Below, piece after piece: positions 33,576-37,015 of a DNA stretch of 64,000 bases (positions within the stretch are counted from its first letter, which is position 1; each line of letters starts with the position of its first letter). The stretch lies in IMG/VR virus record IMGVR_UViG_2541047712_000002. One strand, written 5' to 3'. The position numbers and the translations under genes were made by a program. The notes under the pieces are model-generated. The model did not search any database. It was not told the DNA's origin and saw nothing but the letters and a program-made list of their open reading frames with translations. The DNA is from a virus (lineage: Duplodnaviria > Heunggongvirae > Uroviricota > Caudoviricetes).

Positions 33576-35684
33576 ATGTCTAAAAAACGTTCCATCAAAG
33601 AGGTTCAGGACTTCCGTGACAGTGTAAAACGAGTAGTCGCTCTCCTTTCAGGTAAAAACATCCCTGTTGCAGAACGAGGGGACGACGCTTATGTACGCTA
33701 TAACGATGATGGAGAGCCAATTCTCGTAAACATCCCATCAATCCCGGATAACGCAACACCGGCATTGATGAATGCTGTGCGCGGATTTCTCGATCATGAG
33801 GTTGCTCACATTTTGTTTACCGATATTCGTGTGTCCAACAAAATGAGAGAAAAAGGACGCGTTCCTTCCTGGTCGCTATGGAATGCCTTAGAAGACGTGT
33901 TCATCGAGCGAAAAATGGGTCAGGTCTTTAACGGAACAAGACGTAATCTGATGGCAACTCAGCGCCTTATAATCGAAAAAGTCTTTAAACCAAAGGCTTC
34001 AGAGGCTATTGCTTATTGTGGCAAAGATCAGCGCGCGCTTTTTCTAAACTTCTTTCTCTGTCCGGTTGTAAGAGCCTGGGATGGCCAAGCACCGTTCGTA
34101 GATTTCATGGATGAATATTGGCCTGTCATTGAGAAACCAATTTCATTATTAAAAGAACATGGTATCGATGTGGCCGTGCGTAACATGTCTTGCACCGAGG
34201 ATTGTGTAAAGGTGGCTGCGACCATAGCTAAGATCCTCAAAGACACTGAAAGTGAAAGCAAAGGTAAGGAGTCAGCTCCGGGAAAAACTTCCGATCCTTC
34301 AGACGCTGACCAGACGGATGCCTCTGGAGAAAACAATGAAGACAACGAAGATCATGAGACACCCTCATCGTTAGATAATCACAAATCTATTAAATCAGAG
34401 TCACATAGTAAGCACAAACATGATAATAACGAAAGTGATGGTTCAGATAATCCTGAATCATCAGAAACAATATTCGATGATACAGAAAATGATAAAGCGG
34501 TATCAGATTCTGATGCTTCTGATAACGCGGCGTCAGAATCATTAACCGCTGACCACGAAAAAAGAAAAACGACAGAAGACGGCCCTTCAGACATTCCAAC
34601 TCCGTCAAAAATGAGTCTGGAAGAGGCTTTAGAGGAGTTGGATAGCATGGAAGATGAAGTCGGAGGCATGACAGAAGATGCGCTATCCGAAACGATTAAA
34701 AGCGAGTTAACAGAAAGCTCGAAAAGCGAATACAGGCCATACAATCGCTCATACGACTTCATCGGCTCGATTGATCAGGCAGAAGCCCATATCAAACGGC
34801 TTATTAAAACATTCTCCGATATTGATTTAGGTGGATATCCAATCAGCCGTTATCGCATCGTTCCTGAAGGCAACCAACTCTTCGACAAATATATTGAAAA
34901 GCACCTTTCGTCAGGTGTTTCGTCGACGCTGGCAAAAGACCTGGAACGTGCAATAGCAAGCAGAAACAGAGTTCAGTTTATACCTGGCCAGCGTCGGGGG
35001 CGCATTCATGGTTCAAGTATCTACAGATTAACAATGAATGATGATCGCGTGTTTCGTAAAAAAGAAGAATCTAAAGCCGTTAACGCCTGTGTTCAACAAG
35101 TGATTGATTTATCGGGTTCAATGAGTGGCAAAACGATAAAACTAGCTCTTGCAAGTGCATATACCATCGCCGATGCACTTGATCGAATAAATGTTCCCAA
35201 CATTATCACCGGCTTCACTACATTTGGCAGTCATATGGCAGCAGGAGAACTTAAGGCTATCAAATATGAGTTCTCTCGCTTTGAATCTTTAATGCTACCT
35301 ATCATCAAAAATTGGAATGAAAAAGCAAATTCTCGCGAAGTTCGCTCACGTATGGGGTGCGTAGGCTACACATTCCCACTTCTTAATAACGTGGATGGTG
35401 AAAGCATAGCCAGCCTTGCATCGTTATTTTCCGGTCGCTTGGAGGACAGGAAGATCATGCTTGTTCTGAGCGATGGCGCGCCGTGGGCTGTTGGGAGAGG
35501 TTTTGACGCCCATTTGCGTTCGGTTACGAAGCAAATTGAAACGCAGACTGACATTGATTTGATGGCAATTGGCATCATGACTGATGCACCGGAGAGATTT
35601 TACGCAAATCATGCCCTGGTAACTAGTGTTGATAGTCTTGGTTCATCTGTAGTTACTGAACTATCTCGTATCATTTTGAAGTAA
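33576..35684 (+). CDS. von Willebrand factor A domain protein (CobT-like) with acidic low-complexity linker
   Basis: 702-aa ORF; MIDAS motif IDLSGSMSG in C-terminal domain; central Ser/Asp/Glu/Asn-rich tract (~34250-34700). Confidence 0.5.
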   Translation: MSKKRSIKEVQDFRDSVKRVVALLSGKNIPVAERGDDAYVRYNDDGEPILVNIPSIPDNATPALMNAVRGFLDHEVAHILFTDIRVSNKMREKGRVPSWSLWNALEDVFIERKMGQVFNGTRRNLMATQRLIIEKVFKPKASEAIAYCGKDQRALFLNFFLCPVVRAWDGQAPFVDFMDEYWPVIEKPISLLKEHGIDVAVRNMSCTEDCVKVAATIAKILKDTESESKGKESAPGKTSDPSDADQTDASGENNEDNEDHETPSSLDNHKSIKSESHSKHKHDNNESDGSDNPESSETIFDDTENDKAVSDSDASDNAASESLTADHEKRKTTEDGPSDIPTPSKMSLEEALEELDSMEDEVGGMTEDALSETIKSELTESSKSEYRPYNRSYDFIGSIDQAEAHIKRLIKTFSDIDLGGYPISRYRIVPEGNQLFDKYIEKHLSSGVSSTLAKDLERAIASRNRVQFIPGQRRGRIHGSSIYRLTMNDDRVFRKKEESKAVNACVQQVIDLSGSMSGKTIKLALASAYTIADALDRINVPNIITGFTTFGSHMAAGELKAIKYEFSRFESLMLPIIKNWNEKANSREVRSRMGCVGYTFPLLNNVDGESIASLASLFSGRLEDRKIMLVLSDGAPWAVGRGFDAHLRSVTKQIETQTDIDLMAIGIMTDAPERFYANHALVTSVDSLGSSVVTELSRIILK

Positions 35685-35779
35685 TTAAAACAGCCTTAAT
35701 GATAAGTAACTACTTACCATAGTTAATGGTATATTTATATAAGAACTTGAACGCTCATTAGAGAACAAAGGAAAAGCGC

Positions 35780-37015
35780 ATGACTACTACTGCACTGCAA
35801 AATGATAAAAATCCTTCTGATTACCTTGTTTGCAAGTGGTGCGGCAAATCATTTCACTATTTTAAGTCCCATGTAGCCAATGGTAATTGCGAGGGCATTC
35901 CTGAGTCAGTAAAAGATGCCGATCCTGACACCGTACTGAAAATGTACACAACGCAGTTTCCAGATGAACCAACGCTATCGAAAAAGGCACTTGATGCAAT
36001 TCAAGCTAAACGTGCCGAGCAAAAAAGCGAAATGGCGAAATCTTCTGGCTTGACCAGTAGCCCAGGCTACACAGGCACAGTTGAGTACAAGACAGATCTG
36101 GTCGCAGCTCACGAACTGCTAAACGTAACGGTGGAAGAACTCGGAACAAAACGTGGGACGCCGCTCATGGTTAGCGTCAACGTCAATACGCCGTATCCAG
36201 AGTTCGTTCCAGAAGTGAAGAAGGGCTACGTATATGGCGACTTCGAACTGATCAAAGATATTTTCATGATGCTTGAACTTGGCATACCTGGCTATTTGTG
36301 GGGTCATGCAGGAACAGGCAAATCGTCATTGCCTACACAGCTATGTGCTTTGCTCAATCGTCCGTTGATCCGTGCCCAACATACAGCATCAATGGAAGAG
36401 GCTCATGTTACGGGACAAATTCTGGCGCGTGATGGCTCTACGTATTTCGAGCCTGGCTTGCTTGCGCTCGCAATGAAGCATGGCTGGGTTTACCTCGCGG
36501 ATGAATACGACTTTGCGTTTCCACAAATTCTTGGCGTGTATCAGCCAGTGCTGGAAGGTGAAGCGTTAGTCATCAAAGAGGCAACTCCAGAATGGCGTCG
36601 CATTACTCCGCATGAACGGTTTGCTTTCATTGGCACTGGCAACACGAACGGATCTGGTGATGAAACCGGCTTGTACCAGGGTACAAACATCCAGAACGCC
36701 GCGAACTTTTCGCGTTTTGGCATCGTTTCGAATGTGAAATACATGAGCAAAGAGGCAGAGATCAACATGTTGATAAATGCCGGTATCGTGGATGAATACG
36801 CAGAAAAGATGGTTAAGTTTGCCGGTATCGTTCGCGATGGATACGAAGAACACCTTATCAGTCAGCCAATTGGCCCTCGTGAACTTTTGTTGTCGGCCAA
36901 GATTGGAATGATGCGAGGCGACTTTGTGACAGGTATTGAGCGTTCTTTCATTAACAAACTCCCTTCAGCTTCTGCACAAGCGGCTCGTGAAGTTGTTCAA
37001 AAAATATTTGGTTGA
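35780..37015 (+). CDS. AAA+ ATPase (MoxR/CobS-like)
   Basis: 411-aa ORF with Walker A GHAGTGKSS and Walker B-like VYLADEYD; immediately downstream of vWA protein; N-terminal Cys cluster (CKWCG...C). Confidence 0.5.
   Translation: MTTTALQNDKNPSDYLVCKWCGKSFHYFKSHVANGNCEGIPESVKDADPDTVLKMYTTQFPDEPTLSKKALDAIQAKRAEQKSEMAKSSGLTSSPGYTGTVEYKTDLVAAHELLNVTVEELGTKRGTPLMVSVNVNTPYPEFVPEVKKGYVYGDFELIKDIFMMLELGIPGYLWGHAGTGKSSLPTQLCALLNRPLIRAQHTASMEEAHVTGQILARDGSTYFEPGLLALAMKHGWVYLADEYDFAFPQILGVYQPVLEGEALVIKEATPEWRRITPHERFAFIGTGNTNGSGDETGLYQGTNIQNAANFSRFGIVSNVKYMSKEAEINMLINAGIVDEYAEKMVKFAGIVRDGYEEHLISQPIGPRELLLSAKIGMMRGDFVTGIERSFINKLPSASAQAAREVVQKIFG

Follow-up and report, generated by a model that had tools for sequence, protein, structure and literature searches.

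A CobS-CobT-type ATPase and vWA protein pair with an intact HExxH site in the replication module of an SSU5-type phage-plasmid

In the aerobic cobaltochelatase CobNST (EC 6.6.1.2), as resolved by cryo-electron microscopy of the Brucella CobSTN complex (bioRxiv 10.64898/2026.07.21.739949; PDB 9ujv, 9uka), CobS forms a hexameric AAA+ ring, and CobT consists of an N-terminal domain resembling M48C peptidases, a disordered linker of ~90 residues, a shaft (Q373-R413) inserted in the pore of the ring and a vWA domain bearing the metal-ion-dependent adhesion site called MIDAS. The third subunit, CobN, is held between CobT_N and the MIDAS face (bioRxiv 10.64898/2026.07.21.739949). Here, we report on a related pair of genes in a 64,000-nucleotide stretch of viral DNA (IMG/VR record IMGVR_UViG_2541047712_000002), the whole of which is referred to below as the window. 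At positions 33,576 to 37,015, it encodes a CobT-like adaptor followed by a CobS-like AAA+ ATPase, on an SSU5/pHCM2-type phage-plasmid. The pair is very probably a CobST-type motor and not a cobalt chelatase.

Pairs of this type have been found before in viruses. A two-gene cobST cluster was described by Liu et al. 2021 (PMC8651126), and a MoxR-vWA pair with an N-terminal metallopeptidase was reported in T4-like jumbo phages by Iyer et al. 2021 (PMC7824862). The window pair shares with the viral cobST cluster the same two families (strong matches to PHROG 1576 and PHROG 249), adjacent genes on the same strand in the order adaptor then ATPase, and an HExxH domain (H74-E75-V-A-H78) placed N-terminal to an acidic linker and to a vWA domain with its MIDAS. 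It differs from it on two points: the ATPase of the SSU5 supergroup has a zinc-finger N-terminal extension of ~140 amino acids (aa), and the pair is fixed beside a DnaE polymerase with a uracil-DNA-glycosylase-like domain (DnaE-UDG).

The two proteins are also related to the general group of MoxR/AAA_5-vWA pairs, with an AAA_5 match (2.1e-15) beside a CobT_C/vWA match (2.2e-83). NorQ-NorD, CbbQ-CbbO, RavA-ViaA and midasin/Rea1 likewise unite an AAA_5 ATPase with a MIDAS vWA partner which couples ATP hydrolysis to a client; however, their sequences are more distant and their PDB matches weaker. To our knowledge, none of these vWA partners carries an HExxH domain.

The third system to be considered is the host defence evasion (hde) operon, vcrx089-093, of the IncC plasmids and of the SXT/R391 integrative and conjugative elements (ICEs) (Roy et al. 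2020, PMC7498323). Deletion of vcrx089-090 lowered transfer 25-fold into Vibrio cholerae possessing a type I restriction-modification system but not into a delta-hsdR recipient, and complementation was effective in the recipient and ineffective in the donor (PMC7498323). When these two genes were deleted in Escherichia coli experiments, EcoBI restricted 424-fold and EcoKI 906-fold more strongly (Dimitriu et al. 2024, PMC11602122), and 'vcrx089_090' is listed in AntiDefenseFinder (PMC11724313). In addition, vcrx089-like genes of Pseudomonas phages correlate with infectivity.

The features of the pair in the window are as follows.

33576-35684, plus strand: CobT-like adaptor, 702 aa, ATG start (open reading frame (ORF) list, Pfam, PHROG 1576)
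33576-34238, plus strand: N-terminal domain of the adaptor, aa 1-221, CobT_N fold, possibly M48-like
33792-33809, plus strand: HExxH site of the adaptor, D73-H74-E75-x-x-H78, with further residues N103, E106-D107 and E111
34239-34730, plus strand: acidic, Ser/Asp/Glu-rich low-complexity linker, aa 222-385 (from composition)
34959-35081, plus strand: predicted shaft, aa ~462-502 (alignment to 9uka_G), equivalent to Brucella CobT Q373-R413
35082-35684, plus strand: vWA domain with MIDAS, D511-x-S513-x-S515 (nt 35106-35120), T548 and D633
35780-37015, plus strand: CobS-like AAA+ ATPase, 411 aa, ATG start (ORF list, Pfam AAA_5, PHROG 249)
35831-35872, plus strand: N-terminal extension of the ATPase (~140 aa), with C2H2-like motif C18-x2-C21-x4-H26-x4-H31 at these positions

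A first-pass annotation, made from the letters alone, had recognised a 702-aa vWA protein with a MIDAS motif (DLSGSMSG, found at aa 511-518), a Ser/Asp/Glu-rich tract of ~150 aa (164 aa by our delimitation) and a following AAA+ ATPase with the motif GHAGTGKSS (aa 175-183), and all three stand. Domain annotation of both proteins, one of the checks which it had proposed, supports the vWA and AAA+ assignments far beyond chance. Its description of the pair as MoxR/CobS-like was correct as to AAA_5 and vWA but imprecise, since the pair is specifically of the CobS/CobT type and this type is already published (PMC8651126, PMC7824862). The HExxH domain of the adaptor, the zinc finger of the ATPase and the conserved replication-module setting had been overlooked.

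The adaptor was matched in Pfam by CobT (aa 9-291, 5.8e-26) and by CobT_C (aa 492-701), and matched PHROG 1576 over aa 5-702 with 1001 bits (8.1e-301). PDB 9uka CobT was matched with E 2.2e-17 when the sequence was used alone and with E 3e-62 when the profile of the family was used. Relatives of the adaptor were collected from 1.84 billion cluster representatives, giving 5036 sequences at E <=0.001 and 514 at E <=1e-30, and an alignment of 147 sequences was made of the window adaptor and 146 of the 150 best matches. In this alignment, conservation of the MIDAS residues is 100% at D511, S513, S515 and D633 and 97% at T548. In the shaft, G471 and G475 are invariant or nearly so, and L482, D489, R491 and F493 are 87-98% conserved; by homology with Brucella CobT, this segment would insert in the pore of the ATPase.

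The linker contains 30% D+E and 26% S+T, the sum of D, E and S reaching 40-60% per 30-aa window. Among the 147 homologues its length ranges from 58 to 341 aa (median 187), with a median D+E of 37%. As true CobT also has an acidic disordered linker, the acidic linker is to be read from these comparisons as a trait of the family and not as a peculiarity of the window adaptor. For the same reason, the idea that it is a special DNA mimic was set aside as unsupported as a distinguishing feature.

The ATPase matches PHROG 249 (357 bits, 2.2e-106, aa 11-410) and, over aa 142-411, PDB 9ujv CobS (1.8e-25). Its Walker A motif (G175-S182, nt 36302-36325), Walker B D241-E242, sensor-1 N288, arginine finger R312 and sensor-2 R367 align with G71-S78, D141/E142, N186, R210 and R271 of Brucella CobS. 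Judged from this alignment, the set of residues for ATP binding and hydrolysis is complete. The N-terminal extension gave no Pfam match. Its C2H2-like motif recurs in CobS-like proteins throughout the SSU5 supergroup loci, the second Cys being replaced by Asp in some alphaproteobacterial copies, and is absent from true CobS, from the IncC ATPase and from cyanophage CobS; the motif suggests that C18, C21, H26 and H31 may bind zinc. A clamp-loader-like role for the ATPase was considered and rejected, as it falls in the CobS/MoxR AAA_5 clade and as the cyanophages with the pair have a bona fide clamp loader as well.

In the N-terminal domain, the window adaptor departs from true CobT at the most conserved motif. 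In the 147 homologues, the six motif residues H74, E75, H78, E106, D107 and E111 are 97-100% conserved, and in the alignment of the N-domain (A2) D73, H74, E75, H78, E106, D107 and E111 are invariant. The adaptor thus shows, family-wide, the HExxH and the downstream Glu, a putative ligand, of the gluzincins (M48-like). The AlphaFold2 model of the N-domain has a predicted local distance difference test (pLDDT) score of 91.8, and its topology (helix alpha-1, three beta-strands, helices) is that described for CobT_N. The HExxH is also intact in the adaptors of cyanophage S-RIM2 (annotated 'peptidase'), of vibriophage ICP2, of Rhizobium phage RHEph10 and of the IncC plasmid pMR0211. This retention agrees with the MoxR-vWA pair bearing an N-terminal metallopeptidase of Iyer et al. 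2021.

For comparison, true CobT was sampled with the Brucella sequence, which yielded 118 sequences, all from Rhizobiales and including the Brucella CobT of solved structure. HExxH was found in 0 of these 118, which carry RG(L/I)GDSMAL(R/K) where the window adaptor has RGFLDHEVAH, yet both downstream glutamates are kept in spite of the loss. From this pattern of conservation, the chances that the adaptor is an active peptidase appear evenly balanced.

More distant relatives of the N-domain were also looked for. The single sequence gave only chance matches in the PDB, mainly MHC class II (major histocompatibility complex) and superoxide dismutase chains; the profile did not reach CobT_N among the PDB sequences; and no match was obtained when the model was compared by Foldseek with PDB entries to 8 April 2026, a set apparently without the CobT structures. 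Separately, the N-domain profile (A2, 33576-34250) gave a weak match of 48 residues (E 0.0015) to AcrIIA26 (PDB 9zq6_B), along a helix of the form 'N..ED.fIE...G..N'. AcrIIA26 is an anti-CRISPR published as an acidic DNA mimic of novel fold. The match is short and weak and is probably due to chance; it could reflect remote homology, but the relationship was set aside.

The comparison with CobS-CobT can be extended to the whole machine. The AAA+ catalytic residues are the same, and the CobT_N fold, acidic disordered linker, shaft and MIDAS vWA domain are all shared. On the other hand, in our reading of the alignment the shaft-contact residues S102, D110 and R147 of Brucella CobS are not conserved in the window ATPase, which stops ~13 residues short of the CobS C-terminus, without helix alpha-10, but has the zinc-finger extension, and the intact HExxH of the adaptor stands against SMAL(R/K) in 118 of 118 true CobT. 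The NCBIfam equivalogs give the same picture: the ATPase scored 84.9 bits with the CobS model TIGR01650 (cut-off 558.55) and the adaptor 70.3 bits with the CobT model TIGR01651 (cut-off 759.05).

The nature of the element bears directly on this question. The 9.6-kb region around the pair is 98.7% identical to E. coli plasmids of ~109-113 kb. Such plasmids were present in 252 of 5426 complete E. coli genomes, all the matches being on plasmids and 0 on chromosomes. The DNA identity is 97.6% for Escherichia phage Cyrano and 79% for Salmonella phage SSU5. The closest complete relative is the near-identical plasmid pMB5646_2 (109.6 kb), where genes for tail, capsid, portal and terminase accompany those for RepB and ParB; from these identities and this gene content, the window is assigned to the SSU5/pHCM2-type phage-plasmids. 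Neither CobN nor any other cob gene is annotated on the complete pMB5646_2, and none is present among the window ORFs examined. E. coli is not known to possess CobN or to make cobalamin de novo, and cobalamin synthesis in Salmonella and Klebsiella follows a CobN-independent anaerobic route. As no CobN is found on the relative and none is expected in E. coli, cobalt chelation by the pair is very unlikely.

Some database names nevertheless point to a chelatase or to cobalamin synthesis. In RefSeq, the identical proteins are called 'cobaltochelatase CobT-related protein' and 'AAA family ATPase', and phage records name the pair 'porphyrin biosynthetic protein' / 'porphyrin biosynthesis protein', also 'cobalamin biosynthesis protein CobT'. 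The Cyrano record goes further, with 'dimethylbenzimidazole phosphoribosyltransferase' for the CobT-like and 'cobalamin synthetase' for the CobS-like protein, probably by a mix-up with the unrelated Salmonella CobT and CobS of like gene names.

To place the window pair next to the IncC system, we used plasmid pMR0211, whose ATPase is the counterpart of vcrx089 by its AAA_5 and CbbQ_C domains and by the order ATPase-hypothetical-ssb-bet-exo. This ATPase is 30% identical to the window ATPase (E 1e-27) over aa 142-409, that is, the AAA+ module; in Pfam, the window protein has AAA_5 alone and the IncC protein AAA_5 plus CbbQ_C. The IncC vWA protein, encoded downstream of the hde operon, can be aligned with the window adaptor over the full length of both (6e-22), its HEAAH and MIDAS included. 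Thus, the IncC vWA protein has the HExxH, the low-complexity linker and the MIDAS of its phage relatives, and in both systems there are ties to genes for single-stranded DNA-binding protein (SSB) and exonuclease. The two differ in that the IncC ATPase and vWA genes are split by ssb-bet-exo and a DUF3150 gene (pMR0211 2804-10797) and in that the IncC ATPase is devoid of the zinc-finger extension. A DUF3150 homologue was looked for in the window, and none was found.

The pair is part of a compact group of genes, of which the neighbours are listed here.

33265-33477, plus strand: small ORF upstream of the pair, 70 aa (PHROG 2627, 8.8e-41)
37012-37221, plus strand: small Cys-rich ORF, 69 aa (PHROG 6337, 2.2e-44)
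37196-40714, plus strand: DnaE-type Pol III alpha, 1172 aa (Pfam/NCBIfam: PHP, pol3 alpha, finger, HHH_6)

The intergenic gap between the adaptor and ATPase genes, both on the plus strand, is 95 nt, and dnaE starts 181 nt past the ATPase stop codon, which bears out the first-pass statement that the pair sits directly upstream of the replicative polymerase. No promoter-like or terminator-like site was found on the plus strand from 33576 to a G+C-rich palindrome (stem-loop) at 40721-40742, downstream of dnaE. As no such site separates the three genes, adaptor, ATPase and dnaE are likely to be co-transcribed. The 69-aa ORF overlaps both of its neighbours, the ATPase gene at the end and dnaE at the start, and it occupies the same position in enterobacterial relatives; its product may be a zinc-binding partner of the ATPase or of DnaE. 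The 70-aa ORF is kept in close enterobacterial relatives. The polymerase itself ends in a family-4 uracil-DNA-glycosylase-like domain (aa 1053-1168, TIGR00758, 5e-7), and the same DnaE-UDG fusion is annotated in Rhizobium phage RHEph10.

CobS-like genes were present in 801 phage records, the carriers including cyanomyoviruses, Staphylococcus Kayvirus, Listeria P100-like phages, ICP2 and Rhizobium and Roseobacter phages. The adaptor was matched in 1743 plasmid records, 736 of them conjugative plasmids; among its carriers are plasmids of the SSU5 type from Klebsiella, Escherichia, Salmonella and Yersinia pestis and ~110-kb plasmids of Acinetobacter and Aeromonas. Tailed viruses (sipho-, podo- and haloarchaeal) also have vWA proteins in which the N-domain fold precedes the vWA domain.

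Furthermore, 185,579 species genomes were scanned with the peptide pattern GF[LIV]DHEV[AG]H, which returned 31 loci; as the pattern is the HExxH peptide itself, the scan recovers only the HExxH subfamily and cannot sample true CobT. Many of the loci lie on contigs of ~100-118 kb, and they come from Gamma-, Alpha- and Betaproteobacteria, one cyanobacterium and one Chloroflexi metagenome-assembled genome. Where the flanks were long enough (24 loci), 21 had a CobS-like gene beside the adaptor and DnaE no more than 10 kb away. The genes recur in the order helicase-primase-ligase...CobT-CobS-DnaE-gp32-like SSB-5'-3' exonuclease, which is kept down to 28-40% protein identity; RHEph10 has the same gene order. 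Elsewhere, cyanophage S-RIM2 has the gp46/47 recombination nuclease on one side of the pair and the sliding clamp and clamp loader on the other, in ICP2 the pair is upstream of primase, helicase and PolA, and on pMR0211 the ATPase and vWA genes flank ssb-bet-exo.

Taken as a whole, these data are best explained, in our estimate with a probability of about 0.45, by a CobS-CobT motor of mobile elements which remodels or cleaves a protein client, this client being, most speculatively, a defence protein. By analogy with Brucella CobSTN, the ATPase would form a hexamer with the adaptor shaft in its pore, and ATP hydrolysis would be passed on to a client which the MIDAS face and the N-domain hold between them. 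Because CobN is absent and the N-domain looks catalytically competent, the client would be a protein other than CobN, to be remodelled and/or cleaved. It may be a host defence protein, for which the type I restriction enzymes are the best candidate. The host protease ClpXP degrades HsdR in restriction alleviation, and the machine could be an element-encoded counterpart of this ClpXP-dependent process. In this way, it might shield unmodified DNA of the element after entry or during rapid replication and recombination, which would explain both the probable co-transcription with the replicase and the travelling of the pair with replication and recombination genes. A biological role in anti-restriction or defence evasion is, taken separately, a tentative proposal, somewhat less probable than the motor with a protein client. 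The first-pass annotation had stated that the role of such pairs in phage-like elements is not established; this still holds, but the genetics of the IncC homologue (PMC7498323, PMC11602122) had escaped it.

Several observations weigh against the proposal of a motor directed at a defence protein. The IncC anti-restriction phenotype is assigned to vcrx089 together with vcrx090, and no homologue of vcrx090 was found in the window by tblastn (no match better than E = 0.34). The 30% identity with the IncC ATPase is no closer than that of the window ATPase to true CobS, so that the transfer of function from vcrx089 is weak. The relative pMB5646_2 has a type I hsdMSR of its own, which is awkward for a general anti-type-I activity, unless only certain families are affected, as would be suggested by the IncC data. 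PADLOC revealed no relationship of the pair to defence proteins, with only a chance-level match to DrmE. The sole phenotype of a homologue is that of the IncC plasmid, and none comes from phage pairs. Finally, the synteny is mostly vertical inheritance in one phage supergroup, in a set which was itself found through the HExxH motif.

Among the other explanations, the one which survives best is that of a replication or recombination accessory, in which the pair would remodel a replisome or recombination component of the element or of the host and have no part in defence, for instance in the maturation or turnover of DnaE, SSB or exonuclease, or in the removal of protein roadblocks from DNA in the manner of SPRTN/Wss1 with p97. 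The pair is indeed tightly set in the replication module and probably co-transcribed with DnaE, its relatives have clamp and clamp loader (cyanophage), primase, helicase and PolA (ICP2) or ssb-bet-exo (IncC) as neighbours, and the putative zinc finger of the ATPase could bind DNA. The polymerase, however, varies from DnaE to T4-type PolB and PolA, so that there is no common replisome client; early, anti-defence and replication genes of phages are often neighbours anyway; and the only genetic phenotype of a homologue is anti-restriction. We regard this explanation as unlikely.

The pair could also be a chaperone for metal insertion, on the model of NorQD, CoxDE and CobST, serving the di-iron site of NrdB, the PHP domain of DnaE or SbcCD, with the HExxH holding a metal and no proteolysis taking place. 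Characterised MoxR/CobS-vWA pairs often deliver metals, NorQ and NorD are among the PDB matches, NrdAB and SbcCD-like proteins are encoded in the window, and a yfaE-like ferredoxin gene lies 3 kb from the IncC vWA gene. Nevertheless, no metalloenzyme is common to all the carriers (no ribonucleotide reductase was seen in the stretches of ICP2 and IncC examined), and the HExxH is precisely what has been lost in true CobT, whose own role is in metal insertion. This makes a metal chaperone improbable.

Slightly more doubtful still is a chaperone and protease for virion assembly, as proposed for the peptidase-vWA plus MoxR architecture by Iyer et al. 2021 (PMC7824862) and comparable to the MoxR-vWA pair needed for tail development in Acidianus two-tailed virus. 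The same architecture is found on IncC conjugative plasmids, which make no virions, and this weakens the proposal; moreover, here and in 21 related loci the pair belongs to the replication module and stands apart from the genes for head and tail.

The possibility that the two proteins are genuine auxiliary subunits of cobaltochelatase, hijacking host CobN to make cobalamin in the way that Liu et al. 2021 (PMC8651126) proposed for viral CobST, has for it the homology to CobS and CobT and the database names, but it can be practically dismissed in view of the missing CobN, the equivalog scores far under the cut-offs, the departure from true CobT at the HExxH site, the occurrence of CobS-like genes in Staphylococcus, Listeria and Vibrio phages, and a ribonucleotide reductase of the element which is class Ia (NrdAB), B12-independent, and has no need of the cofactor.

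Besides the pair, the window contains several genes of separate interest. A low-GC (0.33-0.37) chaperone-usher fimbrial operon is located at 26999-31265, between the tRNA cluster and the integrase gene, and comprises a fimbrial subunit/DUF1120 gene, a PapD-like chaperone gene, an usher gene and a 171-aa ORF. It occurs in only 6 of 218 matching E. coli phage-plasmids, most others having GrxA/PhoH at this site, and is a rare adhesin cargo of the phage-plasmid. At 45517-47856, a RecA homologue is split by an intein with a LAGLIDADG homing-endonuclease domain, and in RefSeq the entire 779-aa ORF is labelled 'LAGLIDADG family homing endonuclease'. The tRNA cluster of the window (22898-23512) consists of Asn, Tyr and Ser, to which pMB5646_2 adds a tRNA-Thr between Tyr and Ser. 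Plasmid pMB5646_2 also encodes (81083-88219; further record 97068-97544) a homologue of Pol III theta, HumD (UmuD-like), the type I hsdMSR and dfrA51, the last conferring trimethoprim resistance; theta, HumD, hsdMSR and dfrA51 all lie outside the window.

The pair being already known and annotated, it is no new kind of system. What is added here is, first, the quantified observation that the adaptors of mobile elements keep the HExxH which the sampled true CobT have lost; second, the zinc-finger extension of the ATPase and the depth of conservation of the DnaE-linked module; and third, an explicit link, suggested by sequence similarity, between phage cobST and the IncC anti-restriction ATPase. 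The two published proposals, B12 synthesis and virion assembly, both misfit the SSU5-type element.

The function of viral cobS and cobT has been in question since they were noticed in cyanophage genomes, and viromics routinely counts these genes as auxiliary metabolic genes (AMGs) for B12. With no CobN, a protease motif which is kept and the same architecture on conjugative plasmids, of which the ATPase homologue is a proven anti-restriction factor, this B12-AMG interpretation cannot be general. As a wider and more daring suggestion, which we consider unlikely as it stands, viral 'cobS/cobT' might be ATP-driven, MIDAS-targeted proteases used by mobile elements at large against host defence, type I restriction being the prime target, with the chelatase motor as a derived branch in which the peptidase has been inactivated; its members would be found in tailed phages and archaeal viruses, on phage-plasmids and IncC/IncA plasmids, and in SXT/R391 ICEs, as one distinct class. 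As the pair resides on an E. coli phage-plasmid, the question is directly testable by standard genetics. If a defence-evasion protease were confirmed, the pair would represent an anti-restriction system of a new mechanistic class, and hundreds of 'AMG' annotations would need correction. It would also help to account for the passage across restriction barriers of SSU5-type phage-plasmids and of IncC plasmids, which both carry resistance genes.

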